A stretch of 64,000 bases of DNA from a virus. This document shows, in pieces, positions 3,160 through 47,306 of the stretch. Within the stretch, counting starts at the first letter, position 1; every line of letters begins with the position of its first letter. Position numbers and translations under genes: made by a program. The stretch lies in the IMG/VR virus record IMGVR_UViG_3300029177_000001, positions 26,630 through 90,629 of that record; one strand, written 5' to 3'. Under the pieces are notes generated by a model, which saw only the letters and a list, made by a program, of their open reading frames with translations, made no database searches and was not told where the DNA came from.

Positions 3160-3924
3160 ATGTGTGAATTTAAAAGTGGAATTATTTTTAAGAATAGGGT
3201 GGAACTTGCGCCATTAGGGAATGAAAGTCATTCAAGTTTACTTGAAAACTTGGATGTAGAAGATAATGAATTTAATGCTTCTAAGAAATTTGTGAGAGCA
3301 GAATTAATTCCGCCAGAGAGATATGTTATCACTTCTGATATTTCAAAGTGGACTTATAAAGTCGATCAGGATATTGTGCCAGAATGGTATAGTAACGATC
3401 CAGAGAGATATGAAGAGGAATTTAAAGAATCTGTTAAGAATTTTATGGATAAAAATTTTACAGATGAATTTGGATATTATTGGACAAACATTCGAATGGA
3501 TGGAAAGATATATCATTTTATGTATGGAGTTCTTACGAAGATGAGTTTTGGTAGCAATAATAATTACGCAGAATCTTCTGTAAGAAAATATCTTAAAGAG
3601 CACAAACTTGCAAAAGACATTAAAGATAAATATGGGAATAGTATTGTTCCGTTTGAAAATAACTTGCTTAGTATGGATGGATTTAATGATTATGGCGTTG
3701 TAAAAGACGATGTATTATCTATTCCGACATTTTATTTATTCAGAAAATGTGGTGAAAAACTTCCATTAATCAATTATGCATACTGGCAGTCAACTCCAAA
3801 CCAGACACCGTCAAGAAAAGATTCTTCCTATGTTCAGGTTGTCTACAGTGGTGGGAACATGGGTTACGACGATTGCTGCTGGCTTGATCATGGGGTTCGT
3901 CCGTTTTTTATCACCGAATCTTAA
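3160..3924 (+). CDS. DGR variable (target) protein, C-terminal C-type-lectin/DUF1566-like fold
   Basis: C-terminus 'YWQSTPN...SYVQVVYSGGNMGYDDCCWLDHGVRPFFITES' contains the VR. The '...W..HGVRP' ending is typical of CLec-fold DGR targets. RBS aaaggag upstream of ATG 3160. Confidence 0.9.
   Translation: MCEFKSGIIFKNRVELAPLGNESHSSLLENLDVEDNEFNASKKFVRAELIPPERYVITSDISKWTYKVDQDIVPEWYSNDPERYEEEFKESVKNFMDKNFTDEFGYYWTNIRMDGKIYHFMYGVLTKMSFGSNNNYAESSVRKYLKEHKLAKDIKDKYGNSIVPFENNLLSMDGFNDYGVVKDDVLSIPTFYLFRKCGEKLPLINYAYWQSTPNQTPSRKDSSYVQVVYSGGNMGYDDCCWLDHGVRPFFITES
3826..3905 (+). repeat. DGR variable region (VR)
   Basis: 80-nt alignment to 4411..4490 at constant offset 585. 13 mismatches, every one at an A in TR. 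All 55 non-A positions identical. Confidence 0.93.
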
Positions 3925-4381: not shown

Positions 4382-4410
4382 AATTTTTTTTGGTTGTTTG
4401 CTATATGACT

Positions 4411-4490
4411 TCCTATGTTCAGATTGTCAACAGTAATGGGAACATGAATTACAACGATTGCAACTGGAATAATCATGGAGTTCGTCCGTT
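4411..4490 (+). repeat. DGR template region (TR)
   Basis: Invariant copy of VR. Rich in AAC/AAT codons in the target reading frame (SYVQIVNSNGNMNYNDCNWNNHGVRP). Confidence 0.93.
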
Positions 4491-4609
4491 CTGGATCGGA
4501 AGACGAAATAGAGTAAGAGAAACACTGAAATTAGAGTCCCGATATCAAAAGAGCAAACAACCTTTCCTGTCTAATCAAAGACAGGATAAATACAAAGGTA
4601 GAATATATC
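4411..4609 (+). ncRNA. DGR template RNA (TR plus spacer region preceding RT)
   Basis: Non-coding 119-nt spacer between TR and the RT start contains hairpin cctgtct(4566-4572)/agacagg(4579-4585). ORF-track ORF 4390..4623 is just a translation of this RNA. Confidence 0.7.
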
Positions 4610-6624: not shown

Positions 6625-6695
6625 TGTGGATTAGTGTAACTGGTAGCACGATGCAGCGTGGCACATAAGTAAAGGTTCGATTCCTTTATCTACAA
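6625..6695 (+). tRNA. tRNA-like element with aberrant anticodon arm (possible pseudo-tRNA)
   Basis: Hand fold: 7-bp acceptor tgtggat/atctaca, U8, D arm gtgt-aactggta-gcac with GG, and perfect T arm aaagg-TTCGATT-ccttt. The 20 nt between position 26 and the T arm give no 5-bp stem with a 7-nt loop. No encoded CCA. Confidence 0.4.
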
Positions 6696-6696
6696 T

Positions 6697-6774
6697 TCAT
6701 ATGCAGAACAATTTCCTATACATGTTTCATGACTCCAATAAAATAAGATACATAAAGTTCTGCATATGATTTTT
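6697..6774 (+). terminator. long hairpin followed by T-run
   Basis: 13-bp perfect inverted repeat tcatatgcagaac (6697-6709) / gttctgcatatga (6757-6769), 47-nt loop, then ttttt (6770-6774). Confidence 0.45.
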
Positions 6775-15480: not shown

Positions 15481-15789
15481 ATGGGTAGTTTTGAAATACA
15501 TGGAATTCAAAATGTAAGCTTTGTAGATCTTAAAACTGGAAAGAAGATAAATATAGAAAATGCAGAAGTATCGACATTGAGCGAAAGCAAGGATGTTAAT
15601 GAGCGGAAACCTACTGGTAAGCTGGATATTTCTAAAACACCACATTTTACATGTGAACTTACATATCTAAATAGGAAGGAACTCTTTTGGGCATTATATG
15701 GAATCACAAATAACTACAGAAGATTACATGGTGGACATGCATTGAGAGAAACAACCAGAAGAAGATACATAATGAAACATAAAAAATGA
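15481..15789 (+). CDS. hypothetical basic protein
   Basis: Plus-strand ORF in array. Confidence 0.5.
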   Translation: MGSFEIHGIQNVSFVDLKTGKKINIENAEVSTLSESKDVNERKPTGKLDISKTPHFTCELTYLNRKELFWALYGITNNYRRLHGGHALRETTRRRYIMKHKK

Positions 15790-15791
15790 AT

Positions 15792-15873
15792 AAAAAAGAC
15801 ACACATCTCCGCGACCAAACTTTGATGTGTGTCTGTAAACACAAATACACTGAATAATTTGGAATCCAATGCA
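15792..15873 (-). ncRNA. candidate antisense small RNA (copy 1): promoter, conserved core, intrinsic terminator
   Basis: On the minus strand: TTGACT (15908-15903), 17-nt spacer, TAATAT (15885-15880). Then conserved core (complement of 15836-15863), 11-bp hairpin (15834-15824/15807-15797) and UUUUU (complement of 15796-15792). Confidence 0.5.
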
Positions 15874-15948
15874 TTTATTATATTACATATCTTTACATGT
15901 TTAGTCAAGCATGGATTTCCAAATTAAGAAAATTGAATATAGATAGGA

Positions 15949-16776
15949 GTGATTATTATCGGAGAGTACAAGCCAATTAATTTTACATATTATGATCCGA
16001 GAACCAGCATTTTTAAATCTGGGAAAAGTGACAGAGAAAGTATTTCTGTTTATAAGTGTAATAATTGCGAAAATTGCGATGCTTATAAGCGTAAATGTTG
16101 TGTGATGCTAAATTGGAGGCATAGTTGTCCTTACGGCACAATTGAAAAGAAAGAAGGTTTTACAAAAGCAGCACGTAAATGCGGATATTTAGTAAGTGAA
16201 TATAAGGGAAAATACGGAGATGTTGAATATGCGTTAAAATCATTAAATTTTGTATGTGAAATTGGAGATTATGTTTTTCTTGGATTGCCGCATCTTAATG
16301 GATATAATAATCCAATTCGAAATAGTGATTTCTTTGTAGATGATGACATGATTAAAAAAGATGAATTTACACCTGAATTCGTTGTAGAGCTTATTAAATA
16401 TAAACCATATGCGCTCATGGGTGGAGTAATTTCTTCTTATCAGAAAGAATATGTTCCAAAGTTTTGTGATCAACTAAAAAGACTTATGCCTGACATATAT
16501 AGAAAAGTATGTGAAATCTATCCGGAAATTGAACAGATAGTGGAGAATATTGATTATATAGACAAGATGGCAAAATTAATGACACTTCTTCCTGGGAAAG
16601 TTAAATTATCCACAGATATTCTTGAGTGGGATGGTGAATTATTACATGGGAAAGGAAAACAAATTTCTTTTTGGAAACTAAATGATGAGGAAGTGATTAT
16701 TTTTCCAAATAAAAACACGATAGTAACAATTTGTGATAATTCAACGGTGACTGAAGAGACAGAATTTATTGAATAG
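15949..16776 (+). CDS. hypothetical protein, N-terminal Cys cluster
   Basis: 'CNNCENCDAYKRKCC'. GTG start after aggag. Confidence 0.55.
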   Translation: MIIIGEYKPINFTYYDPRTSIFKSGKSDRESISVYKCNNCENCDAYKRKCCVMLNWRHSCPYGTIEKKEGFTKAARKCGYLVSEYKGKYGDVEYALKSLNFVCEIGDYVFLGLPHLNGYNNPIRNSDFFVDDDMIKKDEFTPEFVVELIKYKPYALMGGVISSYQKEYVPKFCDQLKRLMPDIYRKVCEIYPEIEQIVENIDYIDKMAKLMTLLPGKVKLSTDILEWDGELLHGKGKQISFWKLNDEEVIIFPNKNTIVTICDNSTVTEETEFIE

Positions 16777-40601: not shown

Positions 40602-41789
40602 ATGGCAAGAAAAGAAAAAGCAGTTTTAGAAAAAAAAGGATGGTCAAATTCATTTGTACTGGTTGGAGAGGCAAAAATTAATGCTGATTATACATACAAA
40701 TTGGATGAACATTCTGAGAAATCAGATTGGGTTTACAATTCATTAAATCTTGGTGTTGATTGCGGAGATGTATGCGGAACAGTTTATGCCGAATTGATGG
40801 GCGGATATGGTGCAGAACGAGACAATGTTGTTTATGTCCATGGTAAAGACGCAGATGGCAAGGATGATTTTGAAAACAGATTTACTATTGATTGGGATGA
40901 CAGGTTTGATGAAAAAATCTTGGAGTCTGTCGGAGATTTATGTTTTATGACTGTCGGTCTTGAAAAGGATAAAAATGAAAAGGTGTTTTACAAAAAATTC
41001 TTAACACCATATGACATGATCGCTTATATCAATGAAAATCTAGAGGATGGAATGGTTGTTAATGTAAAAGGACAGCTTAAATATTCTTCATACGAAGGCA
41101 GTGTACAGGTAAAAAAAGAAATTTCAAGTCTTGTGCTTTCCAAAGTAGATGACAGAAGTAAGTATCATGCAAACTTTACACAGACAATGTTGCTTACAAG
41201 AGATAGTGTTGGCAAGCCAGACAAATCAACAGGAATTTTGCCAATCTATGCAAAGATTCTCGATTATGTAAAAGAGTATAAAGGAAAAGAAGTTAGATGC
41301 AATATTCCATATGATAAAGCATTTGAATATGAACTCGATTTAACTAAACCGGAGATGTCACAGAAAGTAATCGAAAAACTTTTTAAAGTGAAAAAGGGAG
41401 TTACAGAAATTACATTTGAAGGAGATTTGATTGAAGGCGGAGCAGTAGTCACAGCAACAGAAGATGATATTCCAGACGACATCAAAACTCTTATTGAGAT
41501 TGGTGTATTCACTTTAGAAGAAGCTCTTCAGAAATGTACTGTTAATTCAGGAAGAGAAAGGAGAATGGTTATTAGAAGACCACAGATTAAAAATGTTGAG
41601 GGAAAAGATGGGACAAAAACTCCAGTCCTCCAGAAGTTTGAACAGAAGTACGACGAAGATGATTTGATTCTTGATTTTATGTATGAAGAAGAATCAGAAG
41701 ATGAAAATAGTGATGTTTACGTCGAAGACGAATCTGAGGATGTTGCAGAAAATCCAAATGATATGTCATGGCTTGATGCACTTGGATAA
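40602..41789 (+). CDS. replication-module protein with acidic C-terminal tail (possible ssDNA-binding protein)
   Basis: ORF track 40488..41789. ATG 40602 after aaaggaga. First gene of the replication block. Tail 'EEESEDENSDVYVEDESEDVAENPNDMSWLDALG'. Function inferred from position and tail only. Confidence 0.6.
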   Translation: MARKEKAVLEKKGWSNSFVLVGEAKINADYTYKLDEHSEKSDWVYNSLNLGVDCGDVCGTVYAELMGGYGAERDNVVYVHGKDADGKDDFENRFTIDWDDRFDEKILESVGDLCFMTVGLEKDKNEKVFYKKFLTPYDMIAYINENLEDGMVVNVKGQLKYSSYEGSVQVKKEISSLVLSKVDDRSKYHANFTQTMLLTRDSVGKPDKSTGILPIYAKILDYVKEYKGKEVRCNIPYDKAFEYELDLTKPEMSQKVIEKLFKVKKGVTEITFEGDLIEGGAVVTATEDDIPDDIKTLIEIGVFTLEEALQKCTVNSGRERRMVIRRPQIKNVEGKDGTKTPVLQKFEQKYDEDDLILDFMYEEESEDENSDVYVEDESEDVAENPNDMSWLDALG

Positions 41790-41796
41790 AAGCATT

Positions 41797-41870
41797 AAAA
41801 AGTCTACGCAGCACAAGACTGCGTAGACAGCAAATAAAACACAAATACATTGAATAATTTGGAGGATAGA
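41797..41870 (-). ncRNA. candidate antisense small RNA (copy 2) overlapping the RBS of ORF 41875
   Basis: Minus strand: conserved core (complement of 41835-41863), 10-bp hairpin (41828-41819/41811-41802), UUUUU (complement of 41801-41797). Upstream promoter weak (TATATT only). Confidence 0.35.
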
Positions 41871-41874
41871 ATAT

Positions 41875-42987
41875 ATGGCAAGAAAATTTGGAAAGAAAAA
41901 AGAAGTGAAAATTGATCCATTAGCTTACAACATTGGACTGGCAGGATTATCTGGTATCGGTAAAACTACTCTTATTAAAAATGTATGTGAGGAACTTGTT
42001 GGAGAAGACGGATATTTAATGTTGGATATCGGGAAAGAAAGTGGACATGATTGTATTGATGGAATTGTGAGTGAAGAATGTGCGGACTGGGAGAAGTTAG
42101 ATGAAGTTCTTGATGACATTATTGACAATAGAACAACAGATTACAAAGATTTGAAAGTGATTGTTTTCGATACATTAGATGAATTATTTACAATTGGAGA
42201 GGAAGAAACGATTGCACAGTGGAATCGATCAAATCCGGACAAACGAACCAAAACAATTAACAGTGTAAATGGCGGATTTGGGAAAGGTCTTGATGCCTGT
42301 ATTGAAATGGTATTAGACAGAATTTGGTCTTTAAAAGATGTTGGAATTTCATTCATTGTAATTGTACATACAAAAACAAAAGACGTGGAAGATCCAATTA
42401 CAGGACAAACATATCAGGTTATTACAGCAAATATGCCACAAAGATATTTTAATGCAATCAAAACAAAATTAGATATTTTTGGTGTTGCATATATTGACAG
42501 AGATATTGTAACAGAAAAACTTGGTAGAAAAGATATTAAAGGAAAAGAAATTACAAGGAACGTTGTTTCAAAAGAGGCACGTAAAATTGCATTCAGATCA
42601 GATAATTATAATCTTGATAGTAAATGCAGATTTCCAGAAATTGTAAGCGAAATCGATCTTGATCCACATCAGTTTATCCAGGCAATTACAGATGCTATCA
42701 AAGCAGAACAAGCTAAATCAGGTAAATCATTTGAAGAATCTGAAAAAGAACAGGCTGCAAAGGAGGCAGAAGAAATGAAAGAACTGGCTAAAAAAGAGGC
42801 AGAAAAGAAAGAAGAGAAAAAAATTGAGTTTGTGATTGATCAGATTAAAGATTTTATCAAAGACAATAAGGGGAATATGGAAGCAATTAAACCATTGCTT
42901 GAATTTTCAAAAGAAAATGGATATGCGAACCCAACTTTAATTGACGATTTATCAATTGCGGAACAGGCATTGAAAATTATTGCTTAA
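41875..42987 (+). CDS. AAA_24 / Sak4-like RecA-fold ATPase
   Basis: 'YNIGLAGLSGIGKTTLIKNV' (Walker A), 'LKVIVFDTLDE' (Walker B). Size and position typical of phage AAA_24 recombination ATPases. Confidence 0.7.
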   Translation: MARKFGKKKEVKIDPLAYNIGLAGLSGIGKTTLIKNVCEELVGEDGYLMLDIGKESGHDCIDGIVSEECADWEKLDEVLDDIIDNRTTDYKDLKVIVFDTLDELFTIGEEETIAQWNRSNPDKRTKTINSVNGGFGKGLDACIEMVLDRIWSLKDVGISFIVIVHTKTKDVEDPITGQTYQVITANMPQRYFNAIKTKLDIFGVAYIDRDIVTEKLGRKDIKGKEITRNVVSKEARKIAFRSDNYNLDSKCRFPEIVSEIDLDPHQFIQAITDAIKAEQAKSGKSFEESEKEQAAKEAEEMKELAKKEAEKKEEKKIEFVIDQIKDFIKDNKGNMEAIKPLLEFSKENGYANPTLIDDLSIAEQALKIIA

Positions 42988-46094: not shown

Positions 46095-47306
46095 GTGTTT
46101 ATTATAGGACGCAAAACTAAAGAAGAATTAAATGAAATTATGTCTTATTACAAGACTGATCGATTATGGAGTTGGTCTAAATTTAATACATATCACACAT
46201 CTCCATATGAATACTTTCTTAAATATATAAAACATGTACCCGAAGATAGGGATGACTGTATCTATGTAGTTACCGGAGGAATGGCACATGAGATTATGGA
46301 AGATTTGTATTTAGGACATATTAAATATGAAGAGATGGATGAAAAATTCGAAGATTCTTGGCTGACAGCAGAAGTGGCTGATTTAAAATTTGACAGAAAC
46401 GACGAAAAGAAAAATGAGAGTGTTAAACAAAAATATTATGAATGTCTAAAACATTTCTTTAACCACCATAAGATGTTTGAACAGCATATGGAAATAGAAA
46501 GATTTGTAACAGCTAAAATTGGAGAAAATGTATTTCAAGGATATATTGATGCTGTTTATAAGGATAAAGATGGCAATTTTCATATATTAGATTGGAAAAC
46601 AAGTTCTATTTATAAAGGTAAAAAAGCAGAAAATGAATGCGGGCAGTTGATTGTGTATGCAATTGCATTGAACCAAATGGGAATTCCGATGGATAAAATT
46701 CGTATCTCATGGGATTTTCTAAAATATGTTTCAATTGATTGTCAGCAAGCAAATGGGAAATGGACAACGAGAGAAATTGAAAGAAATCAGATTGGCATGA
46801 AATTGCAAACAAGCGTGAAGATGTGGCTAAAAAAATGTGGATACGAGGAAAATCAGTTGGAGTATCTTGATCTTCTTATGCAGACAAATGATATTAAATG
46901 TCTTCCAAAAGATGTACAAGAAAAGTATAGAATGAATGATTGTATTGTGACAGTTTCAATCACAGAGGAACTTTTGAATAAATGGACAACAGATATTATC
47001 GAAACAATTTCTGAAATTGAAGAGAAGGAGGATAAATATAAGAAACTGAAAGATAGCAATTTATTAAAAGCAGAAAAAGAGTTTTGGGATTCAGATGACC
47101 TAGTAGAAAAGCAAAGCTATTATTTTTCTACATTATGTGCTTACTCTCCGAATGTACATCTGCCATATAAAAAATATTTAGACAAGCTAAATGCCAAGAA
47201 AGAGCAGCAGGATAATATTTTTGCAGGTGTTGGTGAAGATGCCATATCTAATGTTCAAGGAGAATTATTGGATGAAGACGATATGTCTTGGTTAAATGAT
47301 TTATAG
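46095..47306 (+). CDS. PD-(D/E)xK (Cas4/RecB-like) nuclease with acidic tail
   Basis: 'QGYIDAVYKDKDGNFHILDWKTS' (D...D.K core), 'GQLIVYAIAL'. Tail 'ELLDEDDMSWLNDL'. Confidence 0.7.
   Translation: MFIIGRKTKEELNEIMSYYKTDRLWSWSKFNTYHTSPYEYFLKYIKHVPEDRDDCIYVVTGGMAHEIMEDLYLGHIKYEEMDEKFEDSWLTAEVADLKFDRNDEKKNESVKQKYYECLKHFFNHHKMFEQHMEIERFVTAKIGENVFQGYIDAVYKDKDGNFHILDWKTSSIYKGKKAENECGQLIVYAIALNQMGIPMDKIRISWDFLKYVSIDCQQANGKWTTREIERNQIGMKLQTSVKMWLKKCGYEENQLEYLDLLMQTNDIKCLPKDVQEKYRMNDCIVTVSITEELLNKWTTDIIETISEIEEKEDKYKKLKDSNLLKAEKEFWDSDDLVEKQSYYFSTLCAYSPNVHLPYKKYLDKLNAKKEQQDNIFAGVGEDAISNVQGELLDEDDMSWLNDL

Follow-up and report, generated by a model that had tools for sequence, protein, structure and literature searches.

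Why should one short sequence stand twice in a phage genome, the second time directly against the ribosome-binding site of a replication gene? The question arises in a 64,000-nucleotide (nt) stretch of viral DNA (IMG/VR record IMGVR_UViG_3300029177_000001, positions 26,630 to 90,629; this whole stretch is called the window below), in which a 28-nt core is found at two loci of the same genome ~26 kilobases (kb) apart, copy 1 ahead of a gene for a 275-amino-acid (aa) protein and copy 2 ahead of a Sak4-like AAA_24 ATPase gene. The best-supported explanation from the sequence comparisons, to which we assign a probability of about one half, is that copy 2 is the target of an antisense RNA encoded on the minus strand of copy 1, and a single small RNA may hold back the phage replication genes. 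The initial annotation of this locus had suggested copy 1 as the source of a regulator and copy 2 as its target, and this part of it is supported by the promoter, the fold, a homologue in a distant relative, and 28 base pairs (bp) of complementarity.

The order of elements at copy 2 is compact. The 395-aa open reading frame (ORF) that starts at 40602 ends with TAA at 41787-41789 and is followed on the + strand by an A5 run (41797-41801; T5 on the minus strand), a stem-loop (41802-41828) whose arms GTCTACGCAG (41802-41811) and CTGCGTAGAC (41819-41828) enclose the 7-nt loop CACAAGA in a stem of 10-11 bp, the core TAAAACACAAATACATTGAATAATTTGGA (41835-41863), which runs into the Shine-Dalgarno sequence GGAGG (41861-41865), and the AAA_24 gene itself (41875-42987, ATG at 41875; Pfam AAA_24, 1.4e-21; PHROG Sak4-like, 1.4e-28). 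The hairpin thus sits between the 395-aa gene (40602-41789) and the AAA_24 gene, and a second core does follow it ahead of GGAGG and the ATG at 41875, much as first annotated; the one correction is that the spacer between hairpin and core has six bases, AGCAAA, and not seven. Copy 1 lies at 15836-15863 (+). Direct comparison of the two (TAAACAC...CACTG... in copy 1, TAAAACAC...CATTG... in copy 2) confirms that they differ by one C/T position and one extra A, and the claim that the adjacent hairpins share an architecture without sharing sequence also stands, each being preceded on the + strand by an A-run and followed by no T-run. In the 64 kb there are two occurrences of the 25-nt pattern ACACAAATACAYTGAATAATTTGGA (15839-15863 and 41839-41863), and 100 shuffles gave none with up to three mismatches allowed. 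A search for further copies, as had been proposed, found no third core in the window or in 713 kb of related-phage loci, and a 23-nt core is kept at the same two loci in related IMG/VR contigs. Two sites per genome suit an RNA and its target better than a class of promoters.

By every in silico test available, the minus strand of copy 1 encodes a real small RNA of ~85 nt (gene 15788-15878, predicted transcript from ~15876 to 15791). Its predicted fold begins with a first hairpin, HP1 (5' arm 15876-15864, loop UCCAAAUU at 15863-15856, 3' arm 15855-15843), continues through an 8-nt single-stranded linker, GUGUUUAC (15842-15835), and ends with a terminator hairpin, HP2 (15834-15797), whose 16-nt loop AAAGUUUGGUCGCGGA contains a UUGG element, followed by a run of six U residues (15796-15791). 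The core of copy 1, read on the minus strand, corresponds to the HP1 loop, the HP1 3' arm, and the linker. The small RNA gene has a promoter as well as a terminator of its own, the promoter being a predicted sigma-A-type sequence (TTGACT at 15908-15903, 17 nt, TAATAT at 15885-15880, minus strand). As a match alone this is at chance level in AT-rich DNA; its hexamers are invariant in 16 distinct related IMG/VR variants (one has TTGACC), among which the promoter spacer and the first transcribed bases (the +1 region) vary. The minus strand folds with -29.3 kcal/mol (z -5.2), against -17.8 kcal/mol for the plus strand, which lacks the first hairpin, and all 16 variants keep an identical fold, a minus strand more stable than the plus strand, and a U-run after the terminator hairpin. 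Across the variants 96.9% of stem cells are paired. Five pairs of HP1 vary and all are kept by G-U wobble or Watson-Crick changes, one of them passing from A-U through G-U to G-C; read on the + strand, the varying pairs would be C-A mismatches.

Homology searches agree with this picture. R1, a covariance model that we built from 14 of the small-RNA variants, scores 116 bits at copy 1. In a permissive scan of 301 nt, the Rfam family RF00242 (ctRNA_pT181) matched minus-strand positions 15784-15888 over its full model (1-94) and on the predicted strand, with 37.4 bits (E 7e-4), a score below the 56-bit gathering score of that family; a scan of the whole window at gathering thresholds gave one match, a tRNA. 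The combination of two stem-loops, a U-run, and a large terminator loop like that of ctRNA_pT181 is found at copy 1 only. In a distant relative (L047), whose AAA_24 protein is 47% identical to that of the window, R1 finds a homologue with 47.7 bits (E 7e-10) on the antisense strand ~210 nt upstream of the replication operon of that phage, with a promoter, TTGATA-17-TGtTAAAAT (extended -10), in the same place as in the window; the 5.8 kb of this locus yielded no trans target. Another R1 match, of 17 bits and within a coding region (L043), was judged to be noise. Literature searches by sequence string and by topic returned no description of the copy-1 RNA or of the loop family discussed below.

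What connects this RNA to copy 2 is base pairing. A duplex scan of the whole window (+ strand) with the RNA's 44-nt 5' part gave the core of copy 2 as the best trans match, predicted to form 28 contiguous pairs at 41837-41864, including one G-U pair where the copy-1 C stands opposite the copy-2 T. This duplex has a predicted energy of -37.4 kcal/mol, compared with a window background of -12.9 ± 3.6 kcal/mol and with -24.6 to -30.2 kcal/mol for the best duplexes of 14 shuffled RNAs. It uses the HP1 loop, the HP1 3' arm, and the single-stranded linker, and the identity between copy 1 and copy 2 ends exactly at the boundary between the HP1 loop and its 5' arm. Relative to the AAA_24 ATG the duplex spans -38 to -11 and ends inside GGAGG, the first bases of which are within it, in a region that the predicted mRNA fold leaves mostly open; the complementarity, which is beyond chance, therefore overlaps the translation start region of the gene. 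A further site, at 46651-46695 (+) inside the exonuclease gene (46095-47306), pairs imperfectly with nearly all of the RNA's 5' part (predicted -33.8 kcal/mol, ~37 pairs, many of them G-U), more strongly than the best of the 14 shuffles (-30.2); this may be a second trans target within the replication operon or a chance match.

The two loci are also linked across genomes. RNA gene and core occur together in the window and in each of the 14 contigs that allowed both loci to be read. The core is absent from every AAA_24 lineage examined outside this clade, where there is a hairpin only or nothing, and the 275-aa-gene lineages examined outside the clade have no RNA gene alongside. In the SPbeta-like plaBV1 of Bacillus velezensis, which shares the replication synteny, the 41 kb examined contain neither an RNA homologue nor a core. 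Within the clade we distinguish five diverged versions of the copy-2 spacer (V1 to V5, V1 being that of the window), with AAA_24 proteins 60-99% identical. Two segments are invariant in all five, the 15-mer AAACACA(A)ATACATT, which matches the 3' arm and linker of the RNA, and TTTGGAGGA, which matches its loop, and the flanks vary. The 15-mer alone, scanned in the collection, gave listed matches to unrelated contigs and was uninformative. One form of the RNA (type B) and the V4 target share a deletion of one A, ACACAATACATT, and cognate duplexes are predicted to be stronger than non-cognate ones (type A with V1, -39; B with V1, -26; B with V4, -28; A with V4, -21).

Several observations weigh against RNA targeting. 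The co-variation is essentially one event, the shared A deletion, and three contigs pair the type A RNA with the V4 target. The central part of the site has changed in V2, V3, and V5 with no corresponding change in the RNA, which leaves only a helix of 15-17 nt (-38 to ~-22) and a short contact between loop and Shine-Dalgarno sequence. Additional incomplete copies of the 15-mer, such as operator arrays also show, are present in V4 and V5: AAACACAAATA upstream of the hairpin in V4 (L028, 2385-2395) and ACATAAATACATTGA in tandem with the full core in V5 (L042, 2439-2452). Copy 2 has no complement to the UUGG terminator loop of the RNA, and binding there would hinge on a loop without a YUNR motif. 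Finally, a 15-mer conserved at two loci would suit a protein site on the sense strand too.

With co-variation this thin, such a sense-strand site is still a serious rival, although we consider it unlikely. The core would then be a DNA or RNA signal at both loci, either a promoter for a phage sigma factor or RNA polymerase or an operator for a phage regulator, placed before the 275-aa and AAA_24 genes, and the antisense complementarity would be incidental. The most conserved part of the core holds the -10-like TACATT, the sequence TAGACA-16-TACATT is found on the + strand at copy 2, and both copies stand between a hairpin and a gene start; the array-like partial copies and the uncompensated divergence of the site middle point the same way, and SPbeta-type phages encode an RNA polymerase of their own (YonO). 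Yet no -35 element is conserved, the distance from hairpin to TACATT is 16, 17, 21, or 42 nt depending on the variant, and a start 7 nt past TACATT would leave only 0-5 nt before the copy-2 Shine-Dalgarno sequence. Only two sites exist per genome and none is ahead of other operons, a promoter at copy 1 would direct transcription straight against the RNA promoter, 20-40 nt from it, and a protein site does not predict that the identity should end at the boundary between loop and 5' arm of an RNA. For the particular case of a + strand sigma-A promoter, TAGACA-16-TACATT occurs in the window only, with its -35 inside the hairpin arm; since the -35 is not conserved, the distance between hairpin and TACATT ranges over 16-42 nt, and the leader would be near zero, such a promoter does not fit.

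Less probable again, and in our view improbable, is that copy 2 has no function, being the decayed duplicate of a part of the RNA locus or a short shared "joint" at module boundaries that does no more than promote recombination between phages. Both loci are indeed boundaries of a mosaic: the gene that abuts the copy-1 hairpin from upstream is one or the other of two unrelated genes, depending on the relative, and the spacer at copy 2 varies strongly. Hairpin loops are inverted between near-identical genomes, which indicates active rearrangement at these sites. A neutral remnant would be expected to decay along with its surroundings, but the 15-mer and the invariant loop-matching segment have persisted in five spacers in which the other positions diverged, with AAA_24 identity down to 60%, and this weakens the idea.

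The remaining alternative, that copy 2 is an independent cis-antisense RNA gene starting in the 5' end of AAA_24, running across the ribosome-binding site and core, and stopping at the hairpin and T5, can very nearly be set aside, for although its minus strand forms 9 of the 11 pairs of an HP1-like stem, is the third-best R1 match, passes the terminator scan (minus strand only; 41828-41802, 11 pairs, 6 of them G-C, then TTTTT), and has TTGCCA-16-AATTAT and TATATT upstream, R1 assigns it 12.5 bits (E 0.72) with a disrupted first hairpin, the Rfam ctRNA model gives no match at copy 2 up to E 10, and promoter-like sites are at chance level (4 found, 2.7 expected). The initial annotation had proposed just such a second unit of core and minus-strand terminator making its own RNA, and these scores do not sustain it; the TATATT that it recorded is there, and the minus-strand candidates TTGCCA and AATTAT are not conserved in relatives, TTGCCA being the complement of Met-Ala codons and lost in V2 and V3. 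Nor is the minus-strand terminator conserved: the A-run 5' of the hairpin is present in V1 and V5 and absent from V2, V3, and V4, and the stems of V2 and V3 contain pairs that are U-G in + strand RNA and would become C-A mismatches in a minus-strand transcript. The terminator loops of copy 2 and copy 1 are unrelated. Of the AAA_24 lineages examined, all those with an intergenic gap here have a hairpin at this position, of unrelated sequence, and lineages at 45-77% AAA_24 identity keep the hairpin and have no core (one lineage has neither). Because lineages lacking both core and RNA gene still have the hairpin, it predates the core and was not part of a duplicated unit, and we read it as an older sense-strand mRNA structure, for 3' protection or processing, beside which the core came to stand later.

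If copy 2 is indeed the target of the copy-1 RNA, a course of events can be proposed. Host RNA polymerase would make the small RNA early in infection or in lysogeny, since its promoter is of the host type, and the RNA would keep the replication module down at that time. It would dock through its exposed loop and linker on the unstructured leader 3' of the stem-loop (a "loop-linear" contact), whereupon HP1 would open to give the 28-bp duplex with the AAA_24 leader, blocking 30S binding at the Sak4-like start. The duplex would probably also be an RNase III site, the operon mRNA being cut just 3' of the protective stem-loop; the upstream message would stay capped by that structure, and the Sak4-like gene and the replication genes downstream would be silenced, uncoupled from the upstream gene. 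At its own locus, the RNA would be fully complementary to sense read-through transcripts, and its terminator loop could kiss the complementary sense loop.

The sense strand of copy 1 offers some further observations. No + strand attenuator or terminator was found in 15500-16200, where there is a long + strand hairpin without a U-run, and pT181-style attenuation was rejected for both loci on finding no + strand terminator there or in 41500-42200; sequestration of the 275-aa gene's Shine-Dalgarno sequence upon RNA binding is likewise not predicted by folding. An inverted repeat, AATTTGGAATCCAATGC / GCATGGATTTCCAAATT (15856-15872 and 15910-15926), flanks the small-RNA promoter. Folded on the + strand, this repeat gives the 275-aa gene a leader with a long hairpin; it may serve as a pair of operators or as a structure of the sense RNA. 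We rejected the + strand hairpin (15855-15927) as a conserved structure of the 5' untranslated region, type B having two uncompensated changes. The 275-aa gene has no ATG near its Shine-Dalgarno sequence (15946-15960), the listed GTG overlaps GGAG, and ATT or ATC (ATA in relatives) may serve as the start codon. Its product has a CxxCxxC cluster near the N terminus and belongs to no Pfam or PHROG family, and among deposited phages its only homologue is a hypothetical protein of Bacillus phage Eldridge. No toxin ORF was found opposite the copy-1 RNA.

The terminator of the copy-1 RNA leads beyond this phage. We scanned IMG/VR with the loop pattern CAAANTTTGGTCGNGGAG, and all counts for the resulting family are among the matches listed (at least 120 rows). 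These represent at least 81 distinct contexts and at least 67 hairpins with unrelated stems (median 10 bp), so that the 18-nt loop of the copy-1 terminator (15797-15834), CAAA-N-TTTGGTCG-N'-GGAG, caps at least 67 distinct phage or prophage hairpins. The positions N and N' always pair (T-A 37, C-G 23, A-T 4, G-C 2, T-G 1). A T-run lies 3' of the motif strand in 31 hairpins and an A-run 5' in 30, and none has both; the motif is on the terminated strand in about half and on the opposite strand in about half. Sigma-A-like promoters 20-60 nt upstream on the terminated strand were found at 40 sites, against 15 in the control, for 59 other phage loci. The ten loci that we examined are Firmicute-type prophage regions, with the hairpin between the last gene of the lysogeny operon and the integrase or in an early operon, and the terminator runs antisense to neighboring genes where orientation was checked; in one locus (L199) the loop lies between a DnaC-like gene and an SSB gene. 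The nearest Rfam entry is the pT181 countertranscript, the loop itself being no Rfam family, and none of 13 loop-family loci tested reached an Rfam gathering score. In bacterial genome contigs the pattern gave five matches, about the chance number, in unrelated bacteria and none of them hairpins.

We considered whether the loops might instead be attP sites or mimics of tRNA 3' ends, and rejected this: the hairpins lie between lysogeny genes and int and not at prophage ends, they occur beside both tyrosine and serine recombinases, and the pT181 loop misfits a tRNA end. One match (L248) is a tRNA 3' end, and the loop complement resembles CUCCCCGACCA. Loops can also be found inverted. The terminator loop is inverted between two otherwise near-identical loci and a third (L045/L046, 937-976, against L047, 937-976), and the copy-2 loop reads CACAAGA in V1 (window 41812-41818) and TCTTGTG in V3 (L022); from these sequences, recombination between hairpin arms appears to flip the loops. 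The inversion between L045/L046 and L047 fits a kissing pair in which either partner can carry the U-turn (PMC3834814).

Joining both lines, we put forward tentatively, and at somewhat less than even odds, that the copy-1 terminator hairpin belongs to a large, uncatalogued family of antisense RNAs in Firmicute phages and prophages and that the copy-1 RNA in addition gained a distant target by duplication of its 5' part before the Sak4-like gene. The family may be defined by C-AAA-N-UUUGGUCG-N'-GGAG on any stem and in both orientations, a host-type promoter lying 30-50 nt upstream, and the pT181 countertranscripts may be its one studied relative; here, a cis countertranscript may have become a trans regulator of phage DNA replication. 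The loop family suggests that temperate Firmicute phages commonly have a level of RNA control that has been overlooked, which may matter more than copy 2.

The genomic setting is that of a large phage. All long ORFs of the window are on the + strand and its G+C content is 31%. The 395-aa gene upstream of copy 2 belongs to PHROG 2367, and the AAA_24 gene is the second gene of a replication operon that continues with YorH-like, DnaB-like helicase, primase, exonuclease, DNA polymerase, ExoV/Dda helicase, ligase, and NrdD genes, in the same order as in an SPbeta-like element of B. velezensis. The window is the early and DNA-metabolism/replication region of a large SPbeta-like phage of an anaerobic gut Firmicute, probably a member of the Lachnospiraceae. 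Homologues of the 275-aa gene are found in megabase-size contigs, one cluster of which (longest member 3.5 Mb) includes a protein named at NCBI for Coprococcus phoceensis, and contigs of this size suggest that the phage is temperate. Gut metagenomes often contain the sequence.

Elsewhere in the window, the only clear minus-strand coding candidate that we saw is a 27-aa hydrophobic ORF, MKKLTKLVDSLTLLVMASAVLQLISNL, behind AAAGGAGG (28572-28655), in a 356-nt gap between + strand genes, which looks like a type I toxin such as those of SPbeta-type prophages. A direct repeat near the left end (3824-3912 and 4409-4497; 89 nt, 82% identity) has its copies 585 nt apart. Two hairpins have CTGCATA-type arms: one at 6698-6771, whose loop is 45 nt long and which stands between a tRNA gene (6625-6695) and a T-run, and one at 32466-32496, after a stop codon and without a T-run, which resembles the copy-2 arms in relatives. 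A CTGCRTAG hairpin family in the window was considered and dropped, with weak enrichment and only three hairpins.

Small-RNA control of replication genes is almost undescribed in large Gram-positive phages, whereas the antisense RNAs that set plasmid copy number are textbook material. If the proposal is right, an SPbeta-like gut phage recruited a countertranscript of the plasmid type, and a 28-base duplication rewired that RNA to act 26 kb away at the ribosome-binding site ahead of the Sak4-like gene and of the replication genes beyond it, a simple example of how a cis-antisense RNA can turn trans-acting.

The closest known system is that of the pT181 countertranscripts (RNAI/RNAII, RF00242). 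Like the copy-1 RNA, these are antisense RNAs of ~85-95 nt that begin with a hairpin and end with a terminator hairpin plus U-run, they have a host-type promoter, they are antisense to a replication-related transcript, and their large terminator loop differs little (Rfam consensus AAACUUUGGUcaGGGa, compared with AAAGUUUGGUCGCGGA here). YUNR U-turn loops start contacts between sense and antisense RNAs (PMC3834814), and the terminator loop of copy 1, like that of pT181, is of this kind. The differences are that the copy-1 RNA belongs to a ~160-kb SPbeta-like phage and not to a rolling-circle plasmid, that the adjacent 275-aa gene has no Pfam match and is not a Rep_trans (RepC-type) initiator, that no attenuator terminator was found in the copy-1 sense leader, and that a distant second target at a ribosome-binding site is proposed. 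The pT181 RNAs are not known to have such a second target.

For that last feature the c4 antisense RNA of phages P1 and P7 offers a parallel. It is a phage small RNA that acts in trans on short complementary repeats elsewhere in the genome, and one of its complementary sequences covers a ribosome-binding site and keeps the downstream operon off. The copy-1 RNA would resemble it in acting in trans from a phage genome on a target at a ribosome-binding site. Unlike the copy-1 RNA, c4 is processed from the operon transcript of its own targets, belongs to Gram-negative phages, and controls an antirepressor, and the two have no sequence or structural similarity.

As for the mode of contact, RNAII of pMV158 is an antisense RNA that blocks translation of a replication gene (PMC4485353) and exemplifies, with the loop-linear class of antisense translational regulators (PMC3753616), what is proposed for copy 2. 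In both, a structured RNA pairs through exposed single strands with an unstructured leader; those RNAs are encoded in cis opposite their sole target, unlike the copy-1 RNA, whose proposed target is 26 kb away. In SR4/bsrG and par RNAII/fst, whose antisense members are type I antitoxin RNAs from prophages and plasmids of Firmicutes, contact begins at the terminator loop, the complementarity is spread over separate segments, and the outcome is occlusion of the ribosome-binding site together with mRNA decay (PMC3834814). Those pairs differ from the present one in that here no toxin ORF lies opposite the RNA and the proposed target is a replication ATPase gene; they come close to it in that bsrG/SR4 is located in SPbeta, a phage of the type to which this replication module is related.

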